Shown here: positions 27,416-61,539 of the stretch, piece after piece
How the letters are laid out: each line of letters starts with the position of its first letter
How positions within the stretch are numbered: position 1 is the stretch's first letter
NCBI GenBank assembly: GCA_030704615.1
Contig: CM060732.1
Location: forward strand, 25,110,001 to 25,174,000
Direction: 5' to 3'
From: Takakia lepidozioides
Taxonomy: Eukaryota; Plantae; Bryophyta
Length of the DNA: 64,000 bases
Made by a program: the position numbers and the translations under genes
The notes under the pieces: generated by a model
The model's database searches: none
Told to the model about the DNA's origin: nothing
The model's input: only the letters and a program-made list of their open reading frames with translations

Positions 27416-27420
27416 GGCAC

Positions 27421-35014: not shown

Positions 35015-35224
35015 CCAAATTGACGCGCTGATTAGGTATTTTGACGTCTTGTCCTCTTTCTTGATGAGATCTGTTCTTGCACTTCCTTCTCAGCTGTGTG
35101 TTGCGCCCTGACTTCCACGTGTCCCTTTCTAAACTGACTTCCGTCCTTTCTTCCGCCGGCCATTTCCCTGAAGTTATCCTACGTCCACCTGTCACTGATT
35201 CTATGGATTGTGTAACCCTAGTAG

Positions 35225-35430
35225 GCTGTATTAAGCTGTGACAGGCTGTGTCATACTGTGGTATGCCGTGATAGGTTGTGATACACTGTGGTAAGTTGTG
35301 ATAGGCTGTGACACGCTGGGGTAGGTTGTGATATGCTCTGTCGCGCCTTGATGGGCTGTGATAGGCTGTGTCGTGCCTTGATGGGCTGTGATAGGCTGTG
35401 TCGCGCCTTGATGGGCTGTGATAGGCTGTG
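35225..35430. repeat. GGCTGTGATA-based 10/30-bp tandem repeat; related runs at 42410-42650 and 40684-40805
   Basis: Direct reading; translates as RDTAYHSPS repeats in the integrase tail. Confidence 0.9.
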
Positions 35431-37995
35431 TCGCGCTTGTTCTGCCCGCCCCGGTCATATATGCTCGGCCTAGCGACAAGTGCTCCATATTCCGTTGGTA
35501 ACACTGGCGCAGCCCGTGACGGCTTTTGCGTTTCAACATGCAAATCATGCTGTAATGGTTTGTCATGGATACCACTGTACCCCTTCAACTTATTGGCATT
35601 GACTCTTCCCAACATTTCTTTGTTAATGGTTTGTAACATGGCGGTGTTGTTATCATACATCTTTTGTATGACATAAGGTCCTTTCCATGGTGATTTAAGC
35701 TTAGAAGCTTTAATCTTTCCCTTCTTCTGCAACCATAGAACCAAATTTCCCGTTTTAAAAGTCTTTAACTTGCCTTCATTAAACTGTTCCTTCCTCTTCA
35801 TCTGAATTCTGGTCATATTATCAGCTGCATCAGCACGTACTTCTTCCACATGGTATAATTTATGTGTCCTGACCTTAATGGAATCTTGCAATTCCATTCT
35901 CTTTCCCCATTCCGTTCTCATGGTAGGTAACAGGAATTCCACTGGAAGTAAAGCTTCCATACCATAAACTAATTAGAATGGTGTATACTTAGTGGTGACT
36001 TTATATGAAGTCATGTATGACCACAAAGCTGTCAGCAGCTTTGTATCCCAATCCGTTTTGTTTGCATTGACTATCTTAGCCAAGATAATACATAGTATTT
36101 TGTTGGTAGCCTCTGCCTGCCCATTACCCTGTGGGTAATATGTTGTACTCTTCCTATGCACAATCATGAACTCTTTAGTCAATAATTCAATGGTCTCATT
36201 AATGAAGTGACTTCCCTGATCACTGATAAATTCCAAGGGACAGCCAAATCGTGTAAGTATGTTCTCATACATGAACCTTGTTGTGGACTTGGCTGTGTTG
36301 TCCCTCAAAGCTTTAGCTTCCACCCACTCCATAGTATAATCAGTGGCTGTAATTATGTACTTGTTCTGTGTATTCTTGGCTGGTGGGTTAATTGGTCCAA
36401 CAAAGTCTAGTCCCCATTTCTGAAATGGTTCGGTAGGCATTGTAGGATGCAAAGCCATCTTCCCAGATCTCTGCAAAGGTCCTAGCCTCTGACATTCATC
36501 ACAACTCTGACAATACTTGTGTACATCTTTGAACAAAGTAGGCCACCAGAAACCTGCATGTAGTATTTTCCTGCTGGTAGTCTCTTCTCCAAAATGACCT
36601 CCTGCCACTCATTTATGAACTTCCTCCAAAACTTTATTAACTTCATGGTGGTATAAGCATCGCTTCAGCACTCCATCTGGTCCTAGCTTATACATTTTGC
36701 TCCCTACCATAGTGTAAGGTAGAGCCTTGATAGCAATTCTCTTTCTCTGCTCCTTTCCATAACTTGGTGGGTACTGACCATGAGCAAGGTAGTATCTGAT
36801 TGGCCACTGCCAATCTAACCAGTCATCTGCACTTCCCTGCACCTTCACTGCAAATAGACTCGCATCTAGTAATTGATCATCTACTCCCGTGGCTGGTTCT
36901 CCTGTTGATAACCGTGACAAGTGATCCGCCACAAGATGCAGCCTCCCAGGCTTGTAAACAACCTCGAACTCAAACTCGTGCAAGATTATCAACCATTATC
37001 AGATGTTTGTTTACCAGGTATATCAGAGCCTAGTGATCCACATAGAACATAAACTTCTTGCCCAACAGGTAATGCCTGAATTTCTTCACTGCATAGATCA
37101 TTGCCAATGCTTCTCTTTCCGTTGTGCTATAATTTCTTTCGGCATTGTTCATCAATCGGCTAGCATAGTACACAGGTGAATCTATCCTTCCTGTTACATT
37201 TTGGGCTAACACTGCTCCTAGTGCTTCTCCAGAAGCATCACAGTGAACATGAAATATTTCCTGCCAGTGAGGACTAATCAGCACAGATGTAGTTGTTACT
37301 GACAATGTAAGTTCCTCAAAAGCCTGTTGACATTCAGGTGTCCATGCAAACACTGGATCTTTCTTCAAAAGTTTGCTCAATGGTGCTGCTATCTGTGCAT
37401 ACCGTCTGAAAAATCTTCTGTAATAGCTTGTTTGTCCAAGGAATCTCCTTAGACTCTTAACATTCACTGGTGGTGGAGAGGCTTTCATGGCCTCTGTTTT
37501 CCTGGGATCCACAAGAAGTCCCCTCTTACACACAATGTGTCCCAGAAACACCCCTGAGTTCACACATAAAGTACACTTCTTTGGATTCAGGCCTAGACCT
37601 CTCATCCTGCATCAGGCCAGACATAACTCCAATTTATGCAAGTGCTCATTCTTAGAGCTGTACACACTGAAATCATCCAAGAATACCTGCATGAAATCAT
37701 CCAGATAATCATGAAAAGATTCACTTATCACTCTCTGAAAGGTCGCTGGTGCATTACAAAGTCCAAAGGGCATGACTTTGTATGCATAAGCACCCAAGTC
37801 TGTGATGAAAGCCGTCTTTCCCTGGTCTTCTTCTGCCACTTGCACTTGATTATAACCATTGAAGCCATCCATGAATGAGTACATCTCATGGCCTGCCACA
37901 GTGTCTAATACTGCTTCTGTGAATGGCAAAGGGAAAGGATCTTTCTTCGTACAAGCATTCAGCTTCTTGTAGTTCACACAAACTCTTAGTCTTAA

Positions 37996-40098
37996 CCAGG
38001 GTCAGTACCAATCAAACAGGCAAGGTACAGAATGAATCCCAACTATGCACAGAAGGTTGGAGAAGAGATCAAGAAGTTGGCTGAGGCTAAGTTTATATAC
38101 CCAATAGAGTATACAACTTGGTTGTCACCCATTGTGATAGTTCCCAAGAAGAATGGTAAACTGAGAGTTTGTGTGAACTATAAGAAGATGAATGCTTGCA
38201 CGAAGAAAGATCCATTCCCTTTGCCATTCACAGAAGCAGTATTAGACACTGTGGCAGGCCATGAGATGTACTCATTCATGGATGGCTTCAATGGTTATAA
38301 TCAAGTGCAAGTGGCAGAAGAAGACCAGGGAAAGACGGCTTTCATCACAGACTCGGGTGCTTATGCATACAAAGTCATGCCCTTTGGACTTTGTAATGCA
38401 CCAGCAACCTTTCAGAGAGTGATAAGTAAATCTTTTCATGAGTATCTCGATGATTTCATGCAGGTGTTCTTGGATGATTTCAGTGTGTACAGCTCTAAGA
38501 ATGAGCACTTGCATAAATTGGAGTTATGTTTGGCCAGATGCAGAATGAGAGGTCTGGGCCTGAATCCAGAGAAGTGTACTTTTTGTGTGAACTCAGGGGT
38601 GCTAAGGAGATTCCTTGGCCAAACCAGTTATTACAGAAGATTTGTCAAAAGGTATGCACAGATAGCAGCACCATTGAGCAAGCTTCTGAAGAAAGATGTA
38701 GTCTTTGCATGGACAGCTGAATGTCAACAGGCTTTTGAGGAACTTACATTGTCAATAACAACTACACCTGTGCTGATTAACCCTCACTGGCATGTAGTAT
38801 TTCATGTTCGCTGTGATGCCTCAGGAGAAGCGTTGGGAGCTGTGTTAGCTCAAAATATTACAGGAAATATAGATTCACCTGTGTACTATGCGAGCAGGTT
38901 AATGAACAGTGCTGAAAGGAACTATAGCACAACTGAAAGAGAAGCACTGGCAATGATTTATGCAGTCAAGAAATTCAGGCATTACCTATTGGGAAGAAAG
39001 TTTATGTTTTACGTGGATCACCAGGCTCTGATATATTTGGTGAACAAACCTTTGATAAGTGGAAGGATAGCGAGGTGGTTAATAATCTTGCACGAGTTTG
39101 AGTTCAAAGTTGTTTACAAGCCTGGCCGTTTGCATCTTGTGGTAGATCATTTGTCACGCCTAACAACAGGAGAGGCCGCCACAGGAGTAGACGACCAATT
39201 GCCTGATGCGAGTTTATTTGCAATGGAGGTGCAAGGAAGTGCAGATGAATGGTTAGATTGGCAATGGCCAATCAGATGTGCCCACCTAGTTATGGTAAAG
39301 AGTAGAGGAAGAGAATCGCTATCAAGGCTTTACCTTATACTATGGTAGGGGGCAGAATGTATAAGCTAGGACCTGATGGAGTACTTAAACGATGCATGTA
39401 CCACCATGAAGTAAATAAAGTTTTGGAGGAAGTTCATAAAGGAGTGGCTGGAGGTCATTTTGGAGAAGAGACTACCAGTAGGAAGATACTACTTGCAGGA
39501 TACCGGTGGCCTACTTTGTTCAAAGATGTACACAAGTATTGTCAGAGTTGTGATGAATGTCAGAGGCTAGGACCTTTGCAGAGATCTGGGAAGATGGCTT
39601 TGCATCCTACGATGCCTACCGAACCATTTCAGAAATGGGGACTAGACTTTGTTGGATCAATTAACCCACCGGCCAAGAATACACAGAACAAGTACATAAT
39701 TACAGCCACTGATTATACTACGAAGTGGGTGGAAGCTAAAGCTTTGAGGGACAACACAGCCAGGTCCACAGCAAGGTTCCTGTATGAGAACATACTTACA
39801 CGATTTGGCTGTCCTTTGGAATTTATCAGTGACCAGGGAAGTCACTTCATTAATGAGACCATTGATCTATTGACTAAAGAGTTCATGATTGTGCATAGGA
39901 AGAGTACAACGTATTACCCACAAGGTGATGGGCAGGCAGAGGCTACCAACAAAATACTATGTACTATCTTGGCTAAGATAGTCAATGCAAACAGAACGGA
40001 TTGGGATACAAAGCTGCTGACAGCTTTGTGGTCATACAGGACTTCATATAAAGTCACCACTAAGTATACACCATTCCAATTAGTTTATGGTATGGAAG
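37996..40098 (+). mobile_element. Ty3/Gypsy fragment (family C, copy 2), inverted relative to copies 1 and 3
   Basis: ORFs 38032-39348 (RT-RNase H) and 39342-40157 (integrase) are near-identical in protein to the copy 1 ORFs. Confidence 0.92.
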
Positions 40099-40927
40099 TG
40101 TCACGCGGCTTTTGCTCACCCATCCCTTCGCTATCCGAGGCGGAAACTCCAAGATAGAAGAGTTGGAATCTCTAAGCACTCAGCCCGCTCAAAACAATCA
40201 GTCATGACCTACAGCTAGTGTATCATGGGGGTGTTTCCTATTTGTTTTCCTTCTCACATTCATGTTAGCTAGTTACCTTACTGTTGGTAATTAAGTATCA
40301 GTTTGCTTCAGCAATCTATCGGATCCCATCAACTCATCCATTCATTCCACAGCTTCACTCGGATCTCTCTACACAGTGTGAGTATGAAGTATGTATCAGA
40401 TTAATATCTATCGAGTATCAAGCTGAAGCCATGGAGTTTCTAATCTGCTCTACATTACAACTCTACAGATCGCCCTCCTCCTACTCTGTGCTCTCCCCCT
40501 TCTCCCAGATTTCCCCAAGAAGTCCCCCCTTCCTTTCCTCGCTCCTGGCTTTATCTTCCTACCCGTTGTTCTAACCGTTTCCCTCACTAACCGTCGGCAT
40601 CCGTGTACTAACATGTTCCATTCGCAGATGTTGTTCCCCAAAGTCGGTCCTTGTCCTGCTATCCGTTCCCTATGGTCGTGACAGCTGTGTCAAGCTGTGA
40701 CTGGCTGTGCGACTGTGTCTGGCTGTGTCTGGCTGTGTCGGCTGTGTCGGACTGTGACGGGCTGAGTTGGCTGTGATGGGCTGTGTTGGCTGTGACGGGC
40801 TGTGTAACCCCCCTCTAAAGTGCGCTGTTGTCACCCCTAAGGCTCCTGTTGGTCTCAGTCTGTGCAAAAATTAAGGGTACCCCACATATCCCGTATAAGT
40901 GTCTAAGTCCCAGACAGTCCTCTAACA
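40099..40927 (-). repeat. Probable 3' LTR of family C copy 3
   Basis: TGT...ACA ends; followed by ttaccccttcccctctc (minus-strand PPT); starts where copy 2 integrase homology stops. Confidence 0.65.
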
Positions 40928-43776
40928 TTACCCCTTCCCCTCTCAAAAAGTCGTGTCCTCACGGTTTACTGATTGGGATTAGAAAACCTTTGTGAGCGAG
41001 TACCTTTCTGACGTTGAGAGTCTCGTGAAGGACTCTATGTACGAGCCCGAGGTCTGCCACTGGTTGACGGAGATGATTGAACACTACCTGGATATGTGAG
41101 GCCCTCTGGAGGCTGATATGGAGGTAACCTTTCAGGCATAGGAGACCCCCGTCGCTTCTTCTCTGCCATCTGAATTGCATAGTCTTCTCCCATGTCAAAA
41201 GAGTCCGCTGAAGAAACAGTTGTATCAGAATCCTCATCTCCTCTCAGGTGTTTTAACTGTCGAACTTTTTGTGGAATCCTTTGGGGCATACAATGTTGTC
41301 CTACCATGTCTGGAAGTTTAAATTTTAAAACTTGCTGCAAACGCTGAATGGCAAAATTGGTGAAGACCCTAACTACAGTCTTGCCCTGTGCTCATCCACA
41401 TCCACATGTCCTGATGGCAAATCAAACAATTGCTGCAGGTACTGGGGAGTATTTCTATATCTACTCCCCTCATCTGAGTAACTCCTGTCCGAGGCTCAAT
41501 GTTTTGAAGAAATTGTATCATGAACTGCCGATGATGCAAGGATCAGTCCTTGCGTAGCAATCCCTCCAATCGCAGCTCCTTCAATAGCTGCACCGCTTGT
41601 GGTGCAGCAATCGTTTGCTTCTGTAAGATTGTGGTGCTCTTCACCCTGATATCCTCCATTCCTCTCACTCTCTTCATTCTAGACAAACAGAAAGGTTTTG
41701 GTTGCAACAACTGAAGAAACGTCTGCAGGGCACAAAGCATAAAAGTATGGTTGGCGCAGAATGAAATGGGTAAGTGCTTGTAAGCCTGTGGGGCTTGCAA
41801 GTATCGGTTTAGAGAAAAGATACTCTGCGTTCGCCCGTCCTTGTGCCACTGCGTAAGTAATAATGCGAGAGTGTAGTCTGTTATTTCCGCCATAGCTTCA
41901 AAGCTATAGCTTTGATTGTCTCTCCTGACGAGACGCCCGTTACTTGGAACGACGCCGACTCTTGCGCTCAGAATCCCTCTCAATTCTTGATTTTGCTTCT
42001 TGGAAAATACCCTGTGCAGGTAATTCTGGCTCATGATTGGCTGTTGGCTCTGTGATTGGTTTTGTAATTTAATTCCCTTCCATGGATTTCCCCCCCTGGA
42101 CTGTCCACTAGGATAGCACATGTGACATGGATTTCGCTTTTCGGTACTTGTAAAGGGTTCCGTTACCCTTTCCCTGTATGCATTAATGGGCCCATAATAA
42201 GTTAATGTGTCGGGTAGATACTTTGACGGCCAATTTTGTCTTCTTTCTTGATGACACTTGCTCTTGCAATCCATGTCCGGCTGTGTGTCTCGCCCTGGCG
42301 TCCGCGTGTCCATTTCTAAACCTACCTCCGTCCACTTTTCCTCCGGCCATTCTTCGGATGTTAACCCACGTCCACCTGTCACTGATCCTATGGACTGTGT
42401 AACCCCGGTAGGCTGTGTTGAGTTGTGATAGGCTGTGTGGCACTGTGGTAAGCTGTGATAGGCTGTGACATGTTGTGATAGGCTGTGATAGGCTGTGTGA
42501 CACTGTGATGGGCTGTGATAGGCTGTGTGACACTGTGGTAAGCTGTGATAGGCTGTGATATGCTGTGATGGGCTGTGATAGGCTGTGTGACACTATGATA
42601 AGCTGTGATAGGCTGTGACATGTTGTGATGGGCTGTGATAGGCTGTGTCACGTTTGTACTGCCCGCCCTGGTCATATACGCTCGGCTTAGCGACAAGTGC
42701 TCCATACTCCGTTGGTATCACTGGCGCAGCCCGTGACTACTTTTGCATTTCAACATGCAAATCGTGCTGCAATGGTTTGTCATGGATACCACTGTACCCC
42801 TTCAACTTATTGGCATTGACTCTTCCCAGCATCTCTTTGTTAATGGTTTGTAACATGGCGGTGTTGTTATCATACATCTTCTGTATGACATAAGGTCCTT
42901 TCCATGGTGATTTAAGCTTAGAAGCTTTAATCTTCCCCTTCTTCTGCAACCAGAGAACCAAATCTCCCGTTTTAAAAGTCTTTAACTTGCCTTCATCAAA
43001 CTGTTCCTTCCTCTTCATCTGAATTCTGGTCATGTTATCAGTTGCATCAGCACGTACTTCTTCCACATGGTATAATTCATGTTTCCTGACCTTAATTGAA
43101 TCTTCCAATTCCATTCTCTTTCCCCATTCCGTTCTCATGGTAGGTAACAGGAATTCCACTGGAAGTAAAGCTTCCATACCATAAACTAATTGGAATGGTG
43201 TATACTTAGTGGTGACTTTATATGAAGTCCTGTATGACCACAAAGCTGTCAGCAGCTTTGTATCCCAATCCGTTCTGTTTGCATTGACTATCTTAGCAAA
43301 GATAGTACATAGTATTTTGTTGGTAGCCTCTGCCTGCCCATCACCTTGTGGGTAATACGTTGTACTCTTCCTATGCACAATCATGAACTCTTTAGTCAAT
43401 AGATCAATGGTCTCATTAATGAAGTGACTTCCCTGGTCACTGATAAATTCCAAGGGACAGCCAAATCGTGTAAGTATGTTCTCATACAGGAACCTTGCTG
43501 TGGACCTGGCTGTGTTGTCCCTCAAAGCTTTAGCTTCCACCCACTTCGTAGTATAATCAGTGGCTGTAATTATGTACTTGTTCTGTGTATTCTTGGCCGG
43601 TGGGTTAATTGGTCCTAGTCCCCATTTCTGAAATGGTTCGGTAGGCATTGTAGGATGCAAAGCCATCTTCCCAGATCTCTGCAAAGGTCCTAGCCTCTGA
43701 CATTCATCACAACTCTGATAATACTTGTGTACATCTTTGAACAAAGTAGGCCACCAGTATCCTGCAAGTAGTATCT
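40928..43776 (-). mobile_element. Ty3/Gypsy fragment (family C, copy 3): integrase, tandem repeat, internally deleted extra ORF
   Basis: ORFs 42737-43744 and 41543-42382 parallel 34995-36608 and 34400-35014. Confidence 0.9.
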
Positions 43777-46700
43777 GCCTACCAGGGATGCCTCGGCGTG
43801 AGCCTGGTCACGTGAGCGCAACAGCACTCACGCCACGTCACCTTGCGCAAATGCCACGTCACGGGGCTCACTCCACGTTATCACACGTGAAGGCCGCGTC
43901 ACCACGTGCCTGGAAAGAAGTGGAGTGTATTCCCGCGGATTGGCACCCTTTACCGCGGAAACAAGCTGGACGACATAATAAAAGGCATTGAATAAAGGAT
44001 GGATGAATGTACAGTTGGATGATAAACAGATGGATGAGTGTGAAAAATGAATGTAGATGGATGAATGAGGGATGGATAAGAGTAAAATGGATGAATGTAT
44101 AATGGATGTTGAGGAATGACAAAAATTCATGACATGAAGATGCGTGACCAAAACTTTTGACGAATGCACAACGTATATGAAATGAGTGTGGAAGGTTTGT
44201 GGGGTGGATTAAAGAGTACAGAGGATGAATGTACAATGGATGTTGAACAAAGGAAAAAATTCATGAATGGAACACGCATGAATACACTGTAGATGAATGC
44301 ACAATGGATATGAGAAGAGTCAGGGAGGTTTGCGAGATGGATTCATACATATTGCAATTTAAATGAAAGTTGATTATGTGATTATTATTTGTTCTAAAGG
44401 AACAACTACGGTGGAGGAAGGGGATTCAACGTTTTCCAGATAGTATGAAAATGAATATTAAAAGAATAGTCTGACTCAGAGTCAGTACAATGTATCCCCG
44501 CTTCCTCTGCATCTAAGTCTAAGTATTTTAGAACACCGGATCCACGCTGGATACACCTACAGCTGGCCACTAAAAAGTCAGGGGATAGGGACTCGGCCGC
44601 GTGAAGTGCCATTGCTTCGGCATAAACAGGAAGCAGAAAATTGGAAAGGGGGCTGTCGAAAACAGACTCGCCAGAAATGACTGTATCTCCTGAAGATCCA
44701 CCGCTGCCTTTCCTGAAAGACAGCCTGAAAAAGTTATTACTGTAACTTTGATGTTATTGAGAAATTGAGTATGGCTCCCAAAGAGGGTTTAGCACTTACT
44801 CACATGAAAAGTCGTTGTCGACCTGCTTATCTTCGGGATCGTCATCATTTCGAATTTGAATCCGATCAGTCTGTGTGCTTGAAGTGGAGCCAGACAAAAG
44901 GGGGAGGAGCACTATGTTGTAGAGGTCAGAATCACCCTCCATGCCAAAAAGGCTTCTTCCGCCTGCCTTGCATGCATGGTAAGTTGCTCCTGCACCAGAC
45001 AGGAGGACATGAACAGTTTGGTGGGGGGGATTTAAGCAGATGAAACTGTTGAAAGAAAACCAATTCGGAAGGGAAAGAACGAACCTGTGGACACAGAAAG
45101 ATCGACCACCCGTGCAGAGCGGTGGCTGCATGACTCCAGCAGTATTTGCATGAACGCTGGGGACTTTTCCTTTGCACCTCTCCAGGGAGTGCCATCTGGT
45201 CTCTTCAGAGTCTGACTGGACTGCATGAAGTTGTACAAAATGTCATCGACATGGGGCTCATAGGGGGGGTTGACGAAACAACCCTGGTCAGAAATCTCAA
45301 AGCTGCGGATGGAGGATGGTGTCTTTGAGGTGCGAATCCTCCGCAGGCAGATCGCCTCGAACATCCTCGTCTGCCAAAGATAGCACGTTAGTGTGGTAAA
45401 CACAATCTATAGTGGAAGTGTGTACTGTAGTGTGAAAAGAAGGGGCGTGAATCCCCTTCTGTGCAAGTCTAGTTGTGCTCTTCCCTAGGTCAATCGGAGG
45501 GAAGGAAAGGAGCTCTCCCTCTCAGCTGATCCAACCATCGTCACTCGGTGTGGGTTTCCATCAGGTCCTTCGTGATCAGAGTTCGCACAATCCTCATCCA
45601 CGCCGCAGCGGAAGAGAAGACATGGATGGGGAGTCTGTATTGTTTTCACCCGTGGTTCTACTTCTACACGACATCCTTTCCCTGATACACTGCACCAGCC
45701 ATGTTACCATGCGGTCTTCAGTGATGCAACCAGCCCTACGTCAGTGATGACCACTGCCCTTGTGGGCAGCTCTCTTGGTCAACAATACGTGGAATCCCCT
45801 TTGTAACAAGATCACGATTTGGAAGGCGGCAACGCAGATCTGCCATGAGTTTGCAGGCCCACCAGTTTGGCCCTTCATGGGTTCATGCTTTCTTTATCTT
45901 ACCTCCCCAATCATCCATTCCTCATCATAACCTCTTGCTGGTCAACTCTCTCCCTTGTGTCCTTTTCTCTCTCCCTCTCTCTTTCTTTCAGGATAAGTGG
46001 GTTCCTCACTCTTTCCACTGTAACATGCCTATGATGCAATGCAATGCGCATTCAGCCAAGCATCCAGTGCACCCAGCATTGAAATCAACCTTGGTCACAC
46101 AAGATATAATCAGCCCTTTTATCAGTCCCTCTCTTGCCAATGACAGATGCTTCACACTCCACTTTTCCCAGGTATAACCATTGCCCAAGACAGCTCTCAA
46201 CCCTTCAACAGGTCTCAATTTACACACCCTGACAGCTCTCTTTTTCCCATCAGCTGTGAACCTCAGTGGTTCATGGGCTGAGAGCACTCTGAGAATCAGA
46301 TCCAAACCCAAACAGATGCTGGTTTTTCTGCCCCATCCACATCATCCCTTCTTGTTGTTTCCAAACAGTTCTATCTAACCCTCTCTGGTTTCCTCTACCT
46401 ACTAAGCTAGTTCCACATTGGCTGCAATGTGTCAACATCCCAGGCTAGATTGTTTGTACAAGCTCATGACGTTGAAACAAGGAACAAGAATACAACAACA
46501 GTAACCATTCTGTCCCAGCAACGAGTCTACCCTGTTTCCATTCATTTTCCTACTGTACAATGTAATAGCAGGTGCATCCATCTCCAGCCCATCCTGGTTT
46601 GAAGTCCAGTGTCTTCATTCCATTTACAAAGCTCTTTTTCTTCCTCACATGTCAGTGTCTCTTACTACATACAAGAGACAGTTCAAACTTCACAAAGCGA

Positions 46701-47772
46701 TTTCTAAGCAACCAAAAACCAAAAAGGGGGCCTACACTCCTCGAACTTATCTGTCTTATACTCCTTGAAGTGGTGGGTCTGCCTGTCAAGAAGGCACCTT
46801 ATCCTCTCCCTCGTCAGCCATCTCCGACGTTTCTTCTTATCGTGATTCCAGTCCTCATTAAGGCATGACGGCTCTGCTTCAGCTGCTGGCACATCCTTGT
46901 GCCTGCCAACCTCTACCCTATCCTTCTACATGTGCATTTCCTCCCTATGAGGTGATCTGGTCCTACAGCCCTTAAGACAGAGAGCAGATACATAACTTAT
47001 TTATAGATAGCTTAAGCGCCATACACACCAGAAGGCGGCACCGCTTCCTCTTGCACAGAAAGCCAAGCCAGATCCCTCAACGTCACTCTTTAAGGCAAGC
47101 TGATTCCCTTACAAAGTGATCTGGTCCTACAGCTCAAAAACAGACAGCAGCTACAAGATTTGATCACTGACAACCTGAGGCGATAATACACACCAGCCTG
47201 CATTTCTCATCCCCCAACACCTGCTGAGCCACTCCATCTCCTCATTAATGTGCTCACAAATACCATGGCGACAGCAGTGGTGCACCGCCCTTATCACAAA
47301 CCCGATCCCTCAGGTTTGATCATTGCTTACGAAGAAGGCGGCACCGCTTCTTCTTGCACAGAAAGCCAAGCAGGAGTTCTTAACATTTCTCTTAAAAGCA
47401 AGCTGATACCCTTTGCGTAGGTGGAACCTTCTCAGATATCCTGTGCTGCCAACACCACTGCAGCAGCTGCGAAAAGATCCACGCACTCTTCCCCTTCGAA
47501 TTTCACATCCCGCTTCTAGGGTTCAACATCATGGATGAAAATCATTCATCCTAGGGATGAAAAAGGTGCATGTCATAACTTAGCCATATTTTGTTCTTGG
47601 CAGATAAATAGCATAGTCCTTCCATGGAATTACCTCAAGTTATGGTCAATTCCTCCCCTTCATTAGCACGAAGGGTACTCCCTTTGTAGTAGTGCCGAAA
47701 CCTGATGCCAAACACAAACTTGAGATTTTTACTCCCTGCATTCACACTACATATGTAGTGTGTCTCCTTTTT

Positions 47773-50022
47773 TTAAGTGTCAGGGTCCTCACTGACCACC
47801 TTTAACGGCTGAACACCTATTGGTGGTATGAAGGGTTTTAAATCCCTCCTACTTCTTACCCATTCCTTGTCTGCTCCATCTCTCAACCTGCATCTTCGTG
47901 CAGCTTCTCCAGTCTTGGTTGTGCTTCCTGCGTCCTTGTATCCCAAAAAGTCATAGGGTCCCTCCCATGGAGATGTCATGGAAGACCTCTTTCCAGGTCT
48001 CAACATCATTACCTTGCTGTTCTCCATCAACGTGCAGTAAGTATGCCCTGTTTGATGCCTTCTTTCATAATCTCTTGCCTGTTGACGCTGCCCTTTCTTC
48101 ACACTCTTTCGCAGCTTTGCCTTCATCTCTGTGAGAAGCTGGATTTTCTGCTGCATCATAAGTGTGACTTCTGCTACAGATCCATCAGAATTTACTGGTG
48201 TTGTAAGAAAATGCAACCTGTTGTCAATTCCCAGCCTGGGAATTCTACCAGTAAGTACCTGAAAAGGTGAGAACCCAGTGGAAGCATGGACACCCATTCT
48301 GTAACCAAACAGGGCCTTATAGAGATTCTGATCCCACTCAGTGTCGTTTCCAACTCCTAGGGTGGTGATGCTCTGTTTGATGGACTTAATGACTCTTTCC
48401 ACCATACCGTTACACTGAGGCCAGTAGGGGGCACTATGCTCCCTCTTTATACCGTATTCGTGGCATGTATCTTCAAACTCACCTCCCCACTCTGTGCCAT
48501 TGTCAGTGAGCAACGTATGTGGGCAGCCATACCTGTCAATTACTTCTTCCTCAAGAAAGCGGGCAGCAAGGGCTGCTGTATGATCTGCCACTGGTGCAGC
48601 TTCTATCCATTTTGAGAAGTGATCGATTGCCACCAGAAAGTACTGATTGCCCCTGCTGGTTATAGGTAATGGTCCTGCCGTGTCAATTGCAACTCTGAAA
48701 AACAGATCCACTACTGGAATGCTATGAAGTTTTGAGCTACCTGAGCGCAACACTCCGTTCTGTTTGGCCATCTGACATTTACCACAGCCCTTGAGTACTT
48801 GCCTGATGAGTTTTGTTCTATCATGCCAGAAATAACGTCGGCATATCTCCTCTTGTGTTCTTCTGACTCCAAAGTGGCCAGTGGTTTCATGTACTTCAGT
48901 GATTATTGCCCCTCTGTCAGTCTTTGGTGGAACTACCCTTCCATCAAAGTAGACCTCACCTTTGAGATAGGAGTACTGCCTTGCCCGCCTCTTGACTCTC
49001 TTGCTCTCCTCCTTTGTCAGGTAGTCATTGACTTCTCCAAAACATAAGAGGTGCATGACCTCCACATCATCAAGCACATCAGGTTGCCTTTCCTCCCTAC
49101 CAGCTGCTGTATGAAGGTCAGAGCTGAGTAGAGAGCTTTTCCCACATCTTTCAGCCTCACGTAATAATGACATCTGAGTAGCTTTGGTGGGTGTGGTCCA
49201 TGGTACCCAGTCCGCTTCATCAATCTTGTTGCAAGAAGAAGTGTCTTGTTCTGAACCACTTGTTCCATCACTGTCTGAAGAACAAAACGTCTTGGTGGAA
49301 CACTCACCCCCCATGTTTTTCTTGGCTGGGCATTCTGATGAGGAAGTCACCCGCGTTCTTCTTGTTGTTGGAGTGCTTGTCAAGTGTTGAAGGAATGGTG
49401 TCCCTTGCAAGCTTTCCTTTTCATTGTTCAATCTCTCTTCCACAAGTTCACAGGCTGGATGTACCTCGCTCAGCTGCTTATCACGAGCACAAGATCCTCG
49501 GGTAATCACATGGATGGTGGGACAAGAGGGCATCAGATGCTCCTTTTCCTTGTTGCTGATTGCAGTAGCCTCTATCCTTCCTGCACCCTTATCCTTCCAA
49601 ATACCCTCCCTCACCAGATTGACAGAGCTTGATTGATCAATACCCTTTCCTTGTTTTTTTTTTGTAGCAAAAGTCTGTGCAGCAAAAGTCACCCTCTTTC
49701 CTTCTCCATCTGGCATTATGCCTGGTTTCAGTTCTCCTTTCAATATGCCATGATCCTTGGTCAACATTCCACCTGTGGAAGATCTTACTATACCCGGAAC
49801 GAACTCAAATGAAAAATCACCAAGTAAGTCTATGCCTATGTGGTGCTCTGAGTATAGCCACCAATATGGATCTAGATCTGTTTCTAAAGAAAAATGACTT
49901 CCCAACAGTATTTCCTTGAAGTGCCAAAGGCCCCATACACATGCATAGTACTCTTCTCTTTTGCAAATCATCTCCCCTTTTTCACTGCTATACCCTACTT
50001 GCCTATGAGCTTCTTCTCTCAA
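47773..50022 (-). CDS. Integrase ORF with degenerate RNase H-like N-terminus, 749 aa
   Basis: HETTGHFG..CGKC, AIDTAGP, TDNGTE, NGMVER, WEGPY; N-terminal EYYACVWGLWHFKEILLGSHFSLETD. Start codon uncertain. Confidence 0.85.
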   Translation of the reverse strand: MREEAHRQVGYSSEKGEMICKREEYYACVWGLWHFKEILLGSHFSLETDLDPYWWLYSEHHIGIDLLGDFSFEFVPGIVRSSTGGMLTKDHGILKGELKPGIMPDGEGKRVTFAAQTFATKKKQGKGIDQSSSVNLVREGIWKDKGAGRIEATAISNKEKEHLMPSCPTIHVITRGSCARDKQLSEVHPACELVEERLNNEKESLQGTPFLQHLTSTPTTRRTRVTSSSECPAKKNMGGECSTKTFCSSDSDGTSGSEQDTSSCNKIDEADWVPWTTPTKATQMSLLREAERCGKSSLLSSDLHTAAGREERQPDVLDDVEVMHLLCFGEVNDYLTKEESKRVKRRARQYSYLKGEVYFDGRVVPPKTDRGAIITEVHETTGHFGVRRTQEEICRRYFWHDRTKLIRQVLKGCGKCQMAKQNGVLRSGSSKLHSIPVVDLFFRVAIDTAGPLPITSRGNQYFLVAIDHFSKWIEAAPVADHTAALAARFLEEEVIDRYGCPHTLLTDNGTEWGGEFEDTCHEYGIKREHSAPYWPQCNGMVERVIKSIKQSITTLGVGNDTEWDQNLYKALFGYRMGVHASTGFSPFQVLTGRIPRLGIDNRLHFLTTPVNSDGSVAEVTLMMQQKIQLLTEMKAKLRKSVKKGQRQQARDYERRHQTGHTYCTLMENSKVMMLRPGKRSSMTSPWEGPYDFLGYKDAGSTTKTGEAARRCRLRDGADKEWVRSRRDLKPFIPPIGVQPLKVVSEDPDT

Positions 50023-50080
50023 CTCCTCCTTCCCTCCTTAAATTGAAATAATGAAGCATTGATGGCACCCCTATCCCAAG

Positions 50081-53000
50081 CTAACTTAAGAAGATAGGCT
50101 CCATCCCTCTTTCTCCCTTCTCTTTTCTGACTGTACAGAGAAGTAGAGTATACCTCGATTTCCTCGGTTTCTCAGCTGGTCCCACTGGATACCTGCTTAG
50201 TGCATCTACGTTAGCATGCCTAGCACCTGCTCTGTGAACAATTTTAAACTCAAAATCTTGTAACATCATGATCCATCTACCCCTGCGTCCATATGCGTCA
50301 CTTACCGTTGCCAACCATTCCAGTGGTTTGTGATCAGTCCTGATTACAAAAGGGGTTCCATACAGGTACTGTCGAAAATGTAATACTCCCCACACCAGTG
50401 CATAGCATTCACCCTCCATAGGGTGATATTTGCGCTGAGCATCAGATAGTACCTTACTGGCGTATGCAATGACCCTCTCCTTTTTATACTCCTTTTGTGA
50501 CAAGACTGCCCCTACTCCTTTGATGGACCAGTCAACATCCAAGACGAACGGTCTTGAGAAATCTGGTCTTGCCAGGATGGGAGCAGTTACCAACTTCACC
50601 TGTAAGGTAGAAAAAGCGTTTTGTGCCTCTGCACTCCAGATAAACTTTACATCCTTCTTGGTTAGAGTGAACAAGGGTACTGCCACTCCAGCATATCCTT
50701 TGACATAGGGCCTATAGTACCCTGTCATGCCTAAGTAGCTTTTGAGAGCAGTGTGGTTTTTGGGCAAGGGAAACCTTTCAATAGCAGCTATCTTATCTGG
50801 ATCAGGCCACGTTCCTTCTTCAGAGATCACATGCCCAAGGAATACCAACTGTAAGTTGGCAAAGTAACACTTGTCCGGATTGAGCCTAAGATTGGCCTTT
50901 CTAACCTTGCTCAATACTCTCTTTATATGTCCCACGTGATCTCCCCAGTCCTTGCTATGGATATTGACGTCATCTACAAACACCTTAGCGCAATCTTTGA
51001 TTTCTTCCTTGAGCACTCTATTCATTGTTCTCTGAAAGGTAGCAGTGGCATTTTTTAGCCCGAATGGCATGACCAGCCATTCATACAATCCCTTCTTTGT
51101 GATCACCGCTGTTTTGCCTATGTCTCGGTCGTCCATTTTGATCTGCCAAAAACCAGATTGTAAATCCAGCGCAGAAAACCACTTGGCTTTCCCCAACTGG
51201 TTTAAAACATCCTGAATTAATGGCATAGGGTAAGAGTCCCTTCTGGTCAAACGGTTTACTGGCCTAAAATCACCACAAAACCGCTTGGATCCATCCTTTT
51301 TTGGTGGAAGGGTAACTGGACACGACCATTCTGAACTACTCTCTCTCATCTTGCCTTGTGAGATCAAAGTCTCAATTTGTCCTTGGACCTCGTCTTCCTC
51401 CCATTCTGATAGGCGGCTGGGACGACTTCTGCAAGGGGGAAAACCTTGTGTGTCAATTGTGTGTTCTACCTCACTGCAGTATCCCAAGTCAGCCTTGCTA
51501 AGAGCAAAGCATTCCTGGTTTGCTTTCAGCTCTTGCTCAAGCTCTATCCTATGTTCTGGGGCCAGTTCTGGGTTGATGTGCAGTCTGGATTTCAGACTTC
51601 TCCAACGACTCTCCATTTCTTCCTCTTGACTGGGTTCCCAATTCTTTCCCTCCACCTGGCTTACAGAGTTAGCCATTCTCTGTCGTTCCTCTTGTGTGAC
51701 AACCTGATTCCAATCATGGAAGTCATCCTCTATTTCTAGGTTGTTGTTCCCTAGTTCACCATTCCAAGCTTTCTGATAAGCTTCCTGTATTATGGCAGCA
51801 GCCATGCTCTTATGGGTCTCTTCCTGAAGGAGTTCAGACATCCCTTGGTCCTCGAACAAGTCCTCCCCTAGGTTGACATCGTCTATTATTTCCTCAACAT
51901 CCCTCAGTGCTGTTTCTACCTCCTTACTCTCCTCAGAGCCTCCCATCTCCTCATCTTTATCAGATTTAGAGGTGTCAGAACCTGAGGATGCTTCCTCCGT
52001 GTCCTCATATTCTTCCTCTGGTTTTCTTTTCTTCTCCCACAAGCCTAGGTACTGTTCATCTGACGTCAGGGTTAGGACATTACCTGCTGACGTACTGCTT
52101 GCATATCTCATTCTACTCTCGACCCCTCTATGGTAGGCTGTTTTGGTAACTGCAGGCTCATTATAATTGATGGTGTGCAAAGGGAAGTGAGCAAAATCCT
52201 TTCCTGGCCCATAGCGTACGCGAATTGTTTCAGCTTCGGTGTCCACTACAGCGCCAAACTTTTTGAGAAAGTCCAATCCTAGCAGCATGTGATATGTATC
52301 CGTGTTCACCACCATAAAGGACAAACGATTGGTTAGTTCTCCTACTTTGACCTTGATGTCCTCAAGTCTGCCCATTGCAGTCTCAAGAGCACCTGAGGCT
52401 ACTCTGTAATTCACATCCTTACTAGTAATGACAGATCCCATCAAACCCAGATCCCTGACTGTACTAGCTGATATTACAGAAAGCATGGCACCAGTGTCAA
52501 TCTGGCCTAATACTTGGTAATCTCCCATTGTAATCATTACATGAAGCGCTTTAACCTTACCAGTATAAGCATACGAGATCGTGGGCTCAGCGTGTGCTGA
52601 GTACAAAGGCCTTGGTACATCCTTCACAACTTCTACACTGTGAGTTGTCTCCCTTTGTTGTACCATTGCTCTTTCCACCACTTTGACCAGCCCTTTCAAT
52701 TTGTCTAGCTCTCCGGGCACAGTCATGATCAGGTCCATGGGCGACAACGATATTCTCCCTTTGTAGAAGTGGTTCAAGATTCTGGATTTCGTACCTCCTT
52801 CTATAGCATTCTTGAAATTGTTCTTTGGGTAGATTTCACTCTTGGTCTTGCTTGGCTGTTCACTGCTCTCACTATTCCTTTCTGGTGACCCTGTAGGTTC
52901 AACAATCGGACTCTGGACAGGTATGCGTGTCCTTGGAAGTCTGACTTCATTGATACTATTTCGTGACATCAGATCTGTCATCTCTGCGAGTACATCATCC

Positions 53001-53890
53001 TCATCATCATAGAACACGTCTACAAAGTTAGTTCCCGGAGTTCCCATCATAGTTTGGTCGAGTTTTCTACTGCACTCACTCTCCGTATGCCCGAGTAGCT
53101 TGCAAAAGTTGCATCTCACACCACACATTTCCGTGGAATGCCCGAACCGGTGACATTTGTCACACTTAGCTGGGGTTCTTCCTTCAGGACAATATGCAGC
53201 TATGTGACCTTCTTTGTGACAAACATTACAAAGGCGAACACGAGGTGGTGTTCTAGATCCCGAGCTTTCTCCTATGACTGGTCCCCTATCAAAGTACTTC
53301 TGTAGGGTAGTGTTCAGCTGATCAAGTCTTCTGTCCACAGGGTTGACAAACACAACTGACTCATCTGTATCATCTCCTTCCAATGGTTCTAGAGGTATTT
53401 CCCCTAACTTTCCCAGGCCCCTTTCAATCTCAATGGCTGTGTCAAGTGCTTCCTCTACATCAAGGAAGCGCCTGCCCAGCATTACTCTTGCTATTTCTGG
53501 TCTCAAACCTGCTGCAAATCTACGTCTCTGTTCCAAATCAGACGCCCCACTTCTTATAAATAACCGGTTCAACCTATCGAAGTATGTTTGAACCCTTTGT
53601 CTACTCTCCTGTTTAATGGTATCCATTCTTAGCCTAATTTCTGCCAAGTCAACGATACCAAACTTGGCTGAAATTGCTGCCCTGAAGTCCACCCAGTTGT
53701 TTGGTCTAGGGTTTTGTTTACGGTACCATTCATCAGCCTTGGCTCTCAGGTTGAGCCTTGCTACCTTGAAAGTCTTGTCCTCATTCAAATCCCTGACATC
53801 TGCCTCCATCTGAATTCTCTCCAGCCAGTCATTTACATCCTCACTATTCCTACCATGATAAGGCGCATCTATGCTGGTTGGACTGGTCAT
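50081..53890 (-). CDS. Gag-protease-RT-RNase H polyprotein, 1269 aa
   Basis: Uninterrupted ORF with three CCHC knuckles, QIDTGA, LDLQSGFWQ, FVDD, LDVDWS, TDHKPL. Confidence 0.93.
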   Translation of the reverse strand: MTSPTSIDAPYHGRNSEDVNDWLERIQMEADVRDLNEDKTFKVARLNLRAKADEWYRKQNPRPNNWVDFRAAISAKFGIVDLAEIRLRMDTIKQESRQRVQTYFDRLNRLFIRSGASDLEQRRRFAAGLRPEIARVMLGRRFLDVEEALDTAIEIERGLGKLGEIPLEPLEGDDTDESVVFVNPVDRRLDQLNTTLQKYFDRGPVIGESSGSRTPPRVRLCNVCHKEGHIAAYCPEGRTPAKCDKCHRFGHSTEMCGVRCNFCKLLGHTESECSRKLDQTMMGTPGTNFVDVFYDDEDDVLAEMTDLMSRNSINEVRLPRTRIPVQSPIVEPTGSPERNSESSEQPSKTKSEIYPKNNFKNAIEGGTKSRILNHFYKGRISLSPMDLIMTVPGELDKLKGLVKVVERAMVQQRETTHSVEVVKDVPRPLYSAHAEPTISYAYTGKVKALHVMITMGDYQVLGQIDTGAMLSVISASTVRDLGLMGSVITSKDVNYRVASGALETAMGRLEDIKVKVGELTNRLSFMVVNTDTYHMLLGLDFLKKFGAVVDTEAETIRVRYGPGKDFAHFPLHTINYNEPAVTKTAYHRGVESRMRYASSTSAGNVLTLTSDEQYLGLWEKKRKPEEEYEDTEEASSGSDTSKSDKDEEMGGSEESKEVETALRDVEEIIDDVNLGEDLFEDQGMSELLQEETHKSMAAAIIQEAYQKAWNGELGNNNLEIEDDFHDWNQVVTQEERQRMANSVSQVEGKNWEPSQEEEMESRWRSLKSRLHINPELAPEHRIELEQELKANQECFALSKADLGYCSEVEHTIDTQGFPPCRSRPSRLSEWEEDEVQGQIETLISQGKMRESSSEWSCPVTLPPKKDGSKRFCGDFRPVNRLTRRDSYPMPLIQDVLNQLGKAKWFSALDLQSGFWQIKMDDRDIGKTAVITKKGLYEWLVMPFGLKNATATFQRTMNRVLKEEIKDCAKVFVDDVNIHSKDWGDHVGHIKRVLSKVRKANLRLNPDKCYFANLQLVFLGHVISEEGTWPDPDKIAAIERFPLPKNHTALKSYLGMTGYYRPYVKGYAGVAVPLFTLTKKDVKFIWSAEAQNAFSTLQVKLVTAPILARPDFSRPFVLDVDWSIKGVGAVLSQKEYKKERVIAYASKVLSDAQRKYHPMEGECYALVWGVLHFRQYLYGTPFVIRTDHKPLEWLATVSDAYGRRGRWIMMLQDFEFKIVHRAGARHANVDALSRYPVGPAEKPRKSRYTLLLCTVRKEKGERGMEPIFLS

Positions 53891-56800
53891 CCTTCTATTC
53901 TCTAATCAAAGTTCAAACTGTTTCAACACCTAATTCTGACTCTAATTTTTCCGCAACTCCCTTAATGTTGACCTCTATACCACTCCCACTGTCCATTTCG
54001 CAACATCTCTACTCTACCTCCCCATGTCACCTCTCGTGCCATGGTATTTATCTTCACCCACCTTCCTAACTCTCTTATCCAAAGTGCTATGGTTGTTCTT
54101 CCACCAGTATGAATCACTCTAAGACATAAATCACCATTGGCTATTCTCCAAGCAGGGTTGAAGAAGTACAAACAAGGGTCTGCGTGTGCATTTGGTGTGC
54201 GTCTGCTGAAGCAAATCAGCACATCTCCAATGCTTGGTTCATCAGGAATCAGTGTGTGGTCTCTTCCTGCCATCAAACCATCCAATACCAGTCAAGATCC
54301 CTAGCTAGTAGAAATCAAGATTTAACATCCTAAGCTCTGATACCAAAAGAAGGGGCGTGAATCCCCTTCTGTGCAAGTCTAGTTGTGCTCTTCCCTAGGT
54401 CAATCGGAGGGAAGGAAAGGAGCTCTCCCTCTCAGCTGATCCAACCATCGTCACTCGGTGTGGGTTTCCATCAGGTCCTTCGTGATCAGAGTTCGCACAA
54501 TCCTCATCCACGCCGCAGCGGAAGAGAAGACATGGATGGGGAGTCTGTATTGTTTTCACCCGTGGTTCTACTTCTACACGACATCCTTTCCCTGATACAC
54601 TGCACCAGCCATGTTACCATGCGGTCTTCAGTGATGCAACCAGCCCTACGTCAGTGATGACCACTGCCCTTGTGGGCAGCTCTCTTGGTCAACAATACGT
54701 GGAATCCCCTTTGTAACAAGATCACGATTTGGAAGGCGGCAACGCAGATCTGCCATGAGTTTGCAGGCCCACCAGTTTGGCCCTTCATGGTTTCATGCTT
54801 TCTTTATCTTACCTCCCCAATCATCCATTCCTCATCATAACCTCTTGCTGGTCAACTCTCTCCCTTGTGTCCTTTTCTCTCTCCCTCTCTCTTTCTTTCA
54901 GGATAAGTGGGTTCCTCACTCTTTCCACTGTAACATGCCTATGATGCAATGCAATGCGCATTCAGCCAAGCATCCAGTGCACCCAGCATTGAAATCAACC
55001 TTGGTCACACAAGATATAATCAGCCCTTTTATCAGTCCCTCTCTTGCCAATGACAGATGCTTCACACTCCACTTTTCCCAGGTATAACCATTGCCCAAGA
55101 CAGCTCTCAACCCTTCAACAGGTCTCAATTTACACACCCTGACAGCTCTCTTTTTCCCATCAGCTGTGAACCTCAGTGGTTCATGGGCTGAGAGCACTCT
55201 GAGAATCAGATCCAAACCCAAACAGATGCTGGTTTTTCTGCCCCATCCACATCATCCCTTCTTGTTGTTTCCAAACAGTTCTATCTAACCCTCTCTGGTT
55301 TCCTCTACCTACTAAGCTAGTTCCACATTGGCTGCAATGTGTCAACATCCCAGGCTAGATTGTTTGTACAAGCTCATGACGTTGAAACAAGGAACAAGAA
55401 TACAACAACAGTAACCATTCTGTCCCAGCAACGAGTCTACCCTGTTTCCATTCATTTTCCTACTGTACAATGTAATAGCAGGTGCATCCATCTCCAGCCC
55501 ATCCTGGTTTGAAGTCCAGTGTCTTCATTCCATTTACAAAGCTCTTTTTCTTCCTCACATGTCAGTGTCTCTTACTACATACAAGAGACAGTTCAAACTT
55601 CACAAAGCGATTTCTAAGCAACCAAAAACCAAAAAGGGGGCCTACACTCCTCGAACTTATCTGTCTTATACTCCTTGAAGTGGTGGGTCTGCCTGTCAAG
55701 AAGGCACCTTATCCTCTCCCTCGTCAGCCATCTCCGACGTTTCTTCTTATCGTGATTCCAGTCCTCATTAAGGCATGACGGCTCTGCTTCAGCTGCTGGC
55801 ACATCCTTGTGCCTGCCAACCTCTACCCTATCCTTCTACATGTGCATTTCCTCCCTATGAGGTGATCTGGTCCTACAGCCCTTAAGACAGAGAGCAGATA
55901 CATAACTTATTTATAGATAGCTTAAGCGCCATACACACCAGAAGGCGGCACCGCTTCCTCTTGCACAGAAAGCCAAGCCAGATCCCTCAACGTCACTCTT
56001 TAAGGCAAGCTGATTCCCTTACAAAGTGATCTGGTCCTACAGCTCAAAAACAGACAGCAGCTACAAGATTTGATCACTGACAACCTGAGGCGATAATACA
56101 CACCAGCCTGCATTTCTCATCCCCCAACACCTGCTGAGCCACTCCATCTCCTCATTAATGTGCTCACAAATACCATGGCGACAGCAGTGGTGCACCGCCC
56201 TTATCACAAACCCGATCCCTCAGGTTTGATCATTGCTTACGAAGAAGGCGGCACCGCTTCTTCTTGCACAGAAAGCCAAGCAGGAGTTCTTAACATTTCT
56301 CTTAAAAGCAAGCTGATACCCTTTGCGTAGGTGGAACCTTCTCAGATATCCTGTGCTGCCAACACCACTGCAGCAGCTGCGAAAAGATCCACGCACTCTT
56401 CCCCTTCGAATTTCACATCCCGCTTCTAGGGTTCAACATCATGGATGAAAATCATTCATCCTAGGGATGAAAAAGGTGCATGTCATAACTTAGCCATATT
56501 TTGTTCTTGGCAGATAAATAGCATAGTCCTTCCATGGAATTACCTCAAGTTATGGTCAATTCCTCCCCTTCATTAGCACGAAGGGTACTCCCTTTGTAGT
56601 AGTGCCGAAACCTGATGCCAAACACAAACTTGAGATTTTTACTCCCTGCATTCACACTACAGTACATCGGCTGTTCAGAACTCAGACACAATAAAATCAT
56701 TTTTATCACGAATCGGTGATGATCGGTGTCGTAACAGATTCTACTAGAGTGGAGCTGCAGAGAACATTGAAACTCATCATGAAAGCACAAGCAGAAGGGA

Positions 56801-61039: not shown

Positions 61040-61539
61040 NNNNNNNNNNNNNNNNNNNNNNNNNNNNNNNNNNNNNNNNNNNNNNNNNNNNNNNNNNNNN
61101 NNNNNNNNNNNNNNNNNNNNNNNNNNNNNNNNNNNNNNNNNNNNNNNNNNNNNNNNNNNNNNNNNNNNNNNNNNNNNNNNNNNNNNNNNNNNNNNNNNNN
61201 NNNNNNNNNNNNNNNNNNNNNNNNNNNNNNNNNNNNNNNNNNNNNNNNNNNNNNNNNNNNNNNNNNNNNNNNNNNNNNNNNNNNNNNNNNNNNNNNNNNN
61301 NNNNNNNNNNNNNNNNNNNNNNNNNNNNNNNNNNNNNNNNNNNNNNNNNNNNNNNNNNNNNNNNNNNNNNNNNNNNNNNNNNNNNNNNNNNNNNNNNNNN
61401 NNNNNNNNNNNNNNNNNNNNNNNNNNNNNNNNNNNNNNNNNNNNNNNNNNNNNNNNNNNNNNNNNNNNNNNNNNNNNNNNNNNNNNNNNNNNNNNNNNNN
61501 NNNNNNNNNNNNNNNNNNNNNNNNNNNNNNNNNNNNNNN
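61040..61539. other. Assembly gap (500 N)
   Basis: Run of N. Confidence 1.

Follow-up and report, generated by a model that had tools for sequence, protein, structure and literature searches.

Long terminal repeat (LTR) retrotransposons of the Ty3/gypsy group (Metaviridae, for example yeast Ty3) encode Gag, protease (PR), reverse transcriptase (RT), RNase H (RH) and integrase (IN) in that order, and carry a DDE integrase, a tRNA primer binding site (PBS), a polypurine tract (PPT), TG...CA termini and a target site duplication (TSD). Their cDNA extends from the end of the PPT primer to the starting point of the tRNA primer, and the unique 5' region (U5) of the 3' LTR is rebuilt from the 5' LTR. 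The central rule for retroviruses and LTR retrotransposons is that linear DNA is the integration precursor, and that circles holding two LTRs (2-LTR circles) are by-products. Here we describe an element at positions 45422–56665 of a 64,000 nt stretch of the genome of Takakia lepidozioides (GenBank assembly GCA_030704615.1, contig CM060732.1, positions 25,110,001 to 25,174,000; the whole stretch is hereafter the window, numbered from its first letter). The element shares each of these Ty3/gypsy features. In contrast to them, its LTRs are unequal, with no terminal attachment (att) sequence in the 5' LTR; its PPT is set apart from the TG (by 9–11 nt across the window element and its relatives); its integrase has D-x34-E rather than D-x35-E spacing; and its linear cDNA would be without a CA at the right end.

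Cleavage of a palindromic junction is known from prototype foamy virus, whose integrase cuts after CA on each strand and leaves 2-nt overhangs (PMC1180852). The likeness to our element lies in a palindromic junction with a 2-nt spacer and in the loss of just 2 nt at integration, cutting in our element being predicted from geometry. Foamy virus, however, has complete LTRs, and its circle route is a debated option (PMC1180852), whereas here the right att is absent from U5, and joining would therefore be obligatory. HIV-1 2-LTR circles can be linearized and integrated as a reserve substrate (PMC4372172). As in our proposal, both this route and the 1984 circle model of Panganiban and Temin (PMC11054761) have integrase linearize a palindromic LTR–LTR junction, the product of which is integrated. 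However, the HIV-1 route is a minor path under inhibitor block, with complete LTRs (PMC4372172); the 1984 model was set aside for retroviruses (PMC11054761), and neither leaves permuted provirus ends. The circles of HMS-Beagle, mdg4 and IAP, which depend on alternative end joining (alt-EJ), likewise bring host repair and a circular step into the LTR cycle, but that circle forms at the PBS for second-strand synthesis, linear 2-LTR DNA integrates and 2-LTR circles are by-products (bioRxiv 10.1101/2022.09.25.509424). Our search of the open-access literature, with most subscription papers outside it, found no description of an LTR retrotransposon with the end structure reported here, and the consulted text of PMC7466625 says nothing about element ends.

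Results

We read the window element on the minus strand. Its 5' LTR (54346–56661) begins TGTAGTGTG at 56661 and ends ...CCCCTTCTTT at 54346, a pyrimidine tract without CA. The PBS TGGTATCAGAGC (54334–54345), which we take to be of the initiator tRNA-Met type, abuts this LTR directly, with no CA between. The PPT AAAAAAAGGAGA (47763–47774) stands 11 nt from the TG of the 3' LTR and is followed by a perfect 20-bp palindrome (47743–47762) made up of CACACTACA (47762–47754), the spacer TA (47753–47752) and the LTR start TGTAGTGTG (47751–47743). The body of the 3' LTR (45435–47751), starting TGTAGTGTG at 47751, matches the 5' LTR extended by the first PBS base, with 1 mismatch and no gaps over 2317 nt (a count that includes the T at 45435). 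Beyond it lies a right terminal 9-mer, CACACTACA (45426–45434), which is missing from the 5' LTR and is the same as 47762–47754. The 3' LTR end therefore reads ...CCCCTTCTTT-T-CACACTACA, then GTAC, and GTAC forms the TSD at 45422–45425 on the 3' side and 56662–56665 on the 5' side. Because the T at 45435 pairs with 54345, this 'extra T' is the first base of the PBS. PBS, PPT, TG...CA element termini and TSD were all present, and we concluded that this is a young Ty3/gypsy LTR retrotransposon, its youth following from the near-identity of the LTRs. The first-pass annotation, made by a model from the letters of the window, had described the ends in the same way: a 5' LTR abutting the PBS without CA, a right end formed by the 9-mer of the PPT-adjacent palindrome, a PPT 11 nt from the TG, a 4-bp GTAC duplication, near-identical LTRs, and an extra T that fits a retained 3' A of the tRNA. 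Our reading bore out this description of the layout.

The palindrome by itself is only moderately unusual, because perfect palindromes with arms of at least 8 occur at 7 places in the window and those with arms of at least 10 at 2; its position is what counts. A specific 9-mer at one fixed place has p ~4e-6. A second gypsy element in the window, at ~20441–27415 (minus strand), served as a control. It shares the PBS, but its 5' LTR is complete and ends in CA, 2 nt ahead of the PBS, and its TSD is 5 bp long. The N run closest to the element is at 61040–61539.

The window's own family was read only through contigs of public sequencing runs, and contigs lose rare forms. Ten runs were listed, with no RNA run among them, which carries no information on expression. 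The contigs include an uninterrupted site with a single GTAC (X3 has the joint 45425 to 56674, and X1 and X5 have loose ends at 45425), which supports the reading of a 4-bp TSD; these contigs may stem from further copies of the host repeat instead of an empty allele. The element is nested in that repeat (45330–45425 and 56666–56760), which has a far higher copy number, with summed contig depth near 45386 about 10 times that of the element.

Relatives ('L' loci) were gathered by an integrase alignment search, which supplied the best 80 of 568 matching stretches in metagenome contigs and 2 more from viral contigs. A PPT and then GG-NNACA-NN-TG followed the integrase in 77 of the 82 loci, with TA as the spacer in 75 of these 77; the remaining five either end (2) or are interrupted (3) before the PPT region. 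We found 24 PBS junctions (23 distinct) in relatives at 42–47% integrase identity, and none had a CA in the 7 nt before the PBS. All 24 read as a T-run and then GGTAT, and all had a PBS of the GGTATCAGAG type, the type that the search pattern covered. The first-pass annotation had named in advance the 9-mer at the 5' LTR–PBS boundary of other copies as the sign of a private deletion or an assembly error. It appeared neither at the 23 distinct junctions nor, for the window's own family, in the 12 indel variants listed out of 579.

Among 42 loci with at least 800 nt past the LTR start, 36 had a right terminus, three passed from LTR to PBS and three had no recognizable U5 end (L014, L020, L077). 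Removing five duplicate insertions (L021, L041, L056, L062, L080) from the 36 gave 31 distinct right termini. The same end layout was present in 15 of 15 distinct relatives having both U5 ends. The transferred segment of the relatives is 7 nt long (GG-TTACA, GG-TGACA or GG-CTACA), versus 9 nt in the window family, and only ACA-TA-TGT is common to both; the window thus brings in a distant family whose segment differs in length and sequence from that of the 7-nt layout. Within the window's own family no other letter was listed at 47743–47762 in contigs of 4 runs (at most 2 samples), and these positions were unvaried even in subfamilies whose LTRs diverge just past them. We concluded that the asymmetric layout is clade-wide and inherited, and is not private to the window copy.

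In 11 full relatives the TSD was an exact 4 bp in 8, had one mismatch in 2 and was unclear in 1. The right flanks of the loci (n = 31) showed a weak target bias, with T at TSD position 2 in 18/31 and A or T two bases past the TSD in 29/31. Three loci (L022, L059, L069) had an LTR between a PPT-palindrome on the left and a PBS on the right (PPT-LTR-PBS); we treated this as likely assembly collapse, more so than LTR-sharing tandem arrays or 1-LTR circles. Terminal repeats of 98–123 nt in L033, L081 and L082 were also treated as likely assembly collapse. L081 and L082, members of the clade filed among viral contigs, have terminal repeats of 98 and 123 nt.

Because the palindrome of the window is perfect, its 9-mer may equally be a copy of the PPT-adjacent segment or an inverted LTR start, and the window cannot separate these two sources. 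The distinct right termini of the relatives matched the element's own PPT-adjacent 7-mer in 27/31 cases, the inverted LTR start in 1/31 and the PBS 7-mer in 0/31, and we rejected the latter two as sources of the terminus on these counts. At the variable dinucleotide, terminus and PPT segment were identical in 30/31, a value that 0 of 100000 shuffles reached (kinship ignored). TG variants stood at 3–4 separate places on the tree (L008, L019, L044/L075, L050), a CT variant occurred in L060, and every one was mirrored at the terminus; L008 (TG) was nested with the TT elements L030 and L074 at 100/100. That is, because variants in separate places on the tree were each mirrored, we consider the agreement between PPT segment and terminus to be more than kinship. 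The termini of L018 and L047 had lost one G of the transferred segment.

We compared the U5 stretch ahead of the transferred segment with that ahead of the PBS. It was 1–2 nt longer in 7 and shorter in 0 of 15 distinct elements, whereas control homopolymer runs in the same LTR pairs differed in length in 1/33 (Fisher p 6e-4). The added bases were mostly T, with one C (L075); L019 and L060, both without a 5' LTR for comparison, had an A at the joint position, and non-T additions amounted to 3/31 termini. The 1–2 extra bases are likely an end-joining scar, and we take the joint to be the place where two ends meet in each cycle. The break falls between the T-run and GG, so that GG would derive from the left end.

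The arms of the two palindromic sites differ in composition. Conserved left-arm positions, counted from the end (n = 31), were C17 (100%), T12 (97%) and T10 (94%); right arms matched them in 68%, 87% and 100%, and PPT arms in 0%, 0% and 0%. The pyrimidine share at positions 8–12 was 0.99 in the right arm, 0.79 in the left arm and 0.00 in the PPT arm. In 28 of 31 cases the right arm was nearer than the PPT arm to its own left arm, and the window's arms showed the same pattern. The U5 pyrimidine tract could be kept for other reasons.

This tract (54346–54356 in the window) is roughly complementary to the PPT (47763–47774), as it also is in L031, L038, L063 and L074. Pairing of the two in genomic RNA could bring the PBS and PPT together.

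The coding region lies in two minus-strand frames. A 1274-aa frame (50081–53905) had Pfam matches to Gag with zinc knuckles, aspartic protease, RT and RNase H, with a stop ahead of the integrase in this copy; a 754-aa frame (47773–50037) had a linker, an H2C2 zinc-binding domain and an rve integrase core with D-x34-E spacing. The pol frame of the window copy is thus broken between RNase H and integrase. The Pfam domain order was Gag-PR-RT-RH-IN, Gag homology was found across the clade, and the closest solved relatives were Ty3 RT (E 2e-71) and the Ty3 Gag-Pol integrase (E 7e-23). Between RH and integrase (49798–49953, minus strand) we found the C-terminal half of the element's own RNase H a second time, in degenerate form (40% identity over 58 aa). 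This duplicate was not found in the relatives, which carry one RH match each.

Integrase relatives had 42–55% identity to the window element, with 92 proteins ahead of a sharp score drop, and RT relatives had 55–66% identity. A 44-row RT-RH tree placed the window element and 13 relatives in one clade (Shimodaira–Hasegawa approximate likelihood ratio test, SH-aLRT, 100; stem 0.62), separate from the named plant, algal, fungal and animal sequences included. The D-x34-E spacing, in which the second catalytic D and the E are one residue closer than in the usual D-x35-E, was present in the window element and in 85/85 scored clade proteins (7/92 unscored), versus 1/12 and 0/68 scored outsiders. There was no close relative with a name, and named long proteins reached 33–44% identity. 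Searches gave only four weak matches in genome contigs, and only L081 and L082 in viral contigs.

Several known groups were considered and rejected for this element. A chromovirus was rejected because Pfam gave no chromodomain match in the window element and the clade stands apart from named flowering-plant and algal RTs in the tree. Tat/Athila (OTA) was rejected because there was no aRH-type Pfam match, the integrase ends beside the PPT, and the additional RH piece copies the element's own RH. The rve integrase and 4-bp TSD spoke against DIRS or another tyrosine-recombinase retroelement. The canonical LTR replication pattern was rejected on a 5' LTR that has no CA before the PBS and is unequal to the 3' LTR, and on integrase spacing other than D-x35-E. 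Phygy is the moss non-chromovirus lineage of REXdb (PMC6317226). It resembles our clade in its 4-bp TSD and in having neither a chromodomain nor an extra open reading frame (ORF), with a size of 7.7–10.0 kb versus 7.5–8.7 kb for 11 full relatives here; in contrast, it has a tRNA-Trp PBS (81%) and NCGN targets, whereas here the PBS is TGGTATCAGAGC and NCGN occurs in 0/31 right flanks (PMC6317226). The description of Phygy with which we compared our element reports no end asymmetry (PMC6317226). Judged from that description, we provisionally rejected Phygy membership on PBS and target, the 4-bp TSD being shared. Selgy and TatI also have 4-bp TSDs.

Elsewhere in the window, a C-5 cytosine methyltransferase fragment (E 7e-10) and RT fragments (27414–27606 and 18840–19551, minus strand) flank the gypsy element at 20441–27415 in a GC-rich stretch; neighboring ORFs had no Pfam match. 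These fragments possibly belong to one retroelement with a DNA methylase, into which the gypsy element inserted, splitting it. Positions 34205–43807 hold nested or rearranged pieces of another gypsy family, on both strands and with canonical D-x35-E integrases, and a tandem pentatricopeptide (PPR) repeat coding region occupies 14761–16994. The PPR repeats fit a land-plant host, as does the plant metagenome label of one sequencing run.

Discussion

Judged from these sequences, ordinary reverse transcription does not explain the right terminus of the element. What the genomic copies display directly is the layout, its clade-wide inheritance, the co-variation of PPT segment and terminus, the extra bases and the 4-bp TSD. 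We think it highly probable that the cDNA ends are joined head to tail by some route, whether a ligated circle or an RT jump, and that integrase cuts the junction. For one specific form of this idea we see about an even chance: the right terminus would copy the PPT–LTR segment, and the element would integrate from a ligated 2-LTR circle, with integrase predicted to cut the CA/TA/TG junction. In such a cycle the tRNA would prime at the PBS that abuts U5 and RNase H would leave the last A of the tRNA, giving a linear cDNA with a right end ...CCCCTTCTTT-T and no CA. The plus strand would begin at the PPT and give the left end CACACTACA-TA-TG..., an 11-nt extension. Both ends would then be joined, at times with 1–2 untemplated bases, and integrase would cut after CA on both strands, drop the TA and insert with a 4-bp stagger, so that the 9-mer now terminates the right LTR. 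That is, head-to-tail joining and a cut after CA on both strands would together account for the lost TA and for the provirus as observed, with its T derived from the last A of the tRNA. The PPT palindrome would be spared, we propose because its outer arm is purine-rich whereas both true ends are pyrimidine-rich.

Several observations weigh against integration from a ligated circle. The retroviral precursor is linear DNA and the 1984 circle model was abandoned (PMC11054761), and in Drosophila 2-LTR circles are rare, at 1/73 circle reads (bioRxiv 10.1101/2022.09.25.509424); an obligate host-ligation route would therefore have to be unusually efficient here. The permuted tandem-LTR copies suggested by the first-pass annotation were not found, since 0/77 loci were cut at the internal PPT palindrome; as a circle would contain the palindrome twice, integrase would have to prefer the junction copy. 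No intact head-to-tail junction was present in 698 kb of loci, where junction-like matches were the PPT palindrome on the opposite strand or an integrase-coding look-alike, nor in the 20 loose ends listed, of 36, for the window's family in the run contigs; with contigs prone to lose rare forms, this does not show that junctions are lacking. The L loci come from short-read assemblies. L052 is discordant (CT at the PPT, TT at the terminus), and three further termini are off by one base. Lastly, no joint had lost U5 bases, and host end joining is usually less clean than that, though integration selects for intact joints and so tempers this absence.

The same provirus would arise if no host ligation took place and RT itself jumped: having reached the right end, the growing plus strand would switch its 3' end to the minus-strand 3' end at the left end of the same or another cDNA and copy through the palindrome. 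The resulting nicked circle or concatemer would then be opened by integrase at CA/TA/TG. RT adds untemplated bases at blunt ends, and joints that are exact or 1–2 bases longer (7 longer, 0 shorter of 15), with non-T additions in 3/31, fit such additions. A jump would also account for efficiency because it happens inside the particle. We nevertheless consider it rather doubtful, as the joint of the window's family (T then CACAC) has no microhomology and routine end-to-end jumping by a Ty3/gypsy RT is without support in the literature that we cite; the G lost from the segment in L018 and L047 fits end trimming before ligation as well. In genomic copies, a ligated 2-LTR circle would look the same as the nicked circle or concatemer of an RT jump. 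Thus, where the first-pass annotation proposed that a PPT-to-PBS cDNA is circularized and cut at CA/TA/TG, the tracking of the PPT segment by the terminus and the extra bases at the joint favor it, but its ligated circle is inseparable from the other two forms. A further step removed, and improbable in our view, is some other linear route that builds the right end without a head-to-tail junction, for example an integrase that moves a left-end oligomer or an extended primer that supplies the 9-mer. Consistent with such a route, no junction molecule was seen in the loci or listed loose ends, and the integrase core of the clade is unusual (D-x34-E). It would leave the TA spacer and two-fold symmetry at the PPT unexplained, however, and its variants predict other termini: 1/31 termini fit the inverted LTR start expected from a self-primer from the RNA 5' end, and 0/31 fit the PBS 7-mer expected from a retained tRNA copy.

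It is very unlikely that the terminal segment is inherited separately, by read-through RNA, gene conversion or compensatory selection, and merely resembles the segment beside the PPT. Related elements do share both segments by descent, and the discordance of L052 would suit this idea. But standard reverse transcription rebuilds the 3' U5 from a 5' LTR that is without the segment, in at least four separate lineages the terminus has followed changes in the PPT segment, and the extra bases at the joint vary between copies. Least credible of all, to the point of being negligible, is a private 5' LTR deletion or an assembly error. The window's family is readable through contigs only, with its variants listed in part, which leaves this idea some room; against it, the same layout recurs in 15/15 distinct relatives with both U5 ends, in other assemblies and with another segment length and sequence, and the palindrome is invariant among the variants listed for 4 runs. 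For the clade, a private deletion or assembly error is refuted.

Returning to joined cDNA ends, we consider it probable that an old plant Ty3/gypsy lineage gave up linear-cDNA integration: it would store the right att beside the PPT, join its ends head to tail in every cycle, and open the junction with its D-x34-E integrase, which would act as a site-specific endonuclease and leave the second palindrome uncut. A lineage spanning 60–64% RT identity has ends that ordinary reverse transcription cannot make. There is also a warning for annotation, as the PBS start of the relatives (GGTATCA) mimics the true terminus (GGTTACA), and LTR finders would therefore likely extend the 5' LTR into the PBS, so that the asymmetry would go unseen. 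The integrase of the lineage likely reads a 20-bp symmetric site, and the old question of a circular precursor becomes directly testable. If our proposal is true, the abandoned 1984 circle-precursor model would for the first time describe the obligatory route of a natural LTR element, every genomic copy would carry the proof, and the extrachromosomal circular DNA (eccDNA) junctions of the lineage would be productive intermediates.

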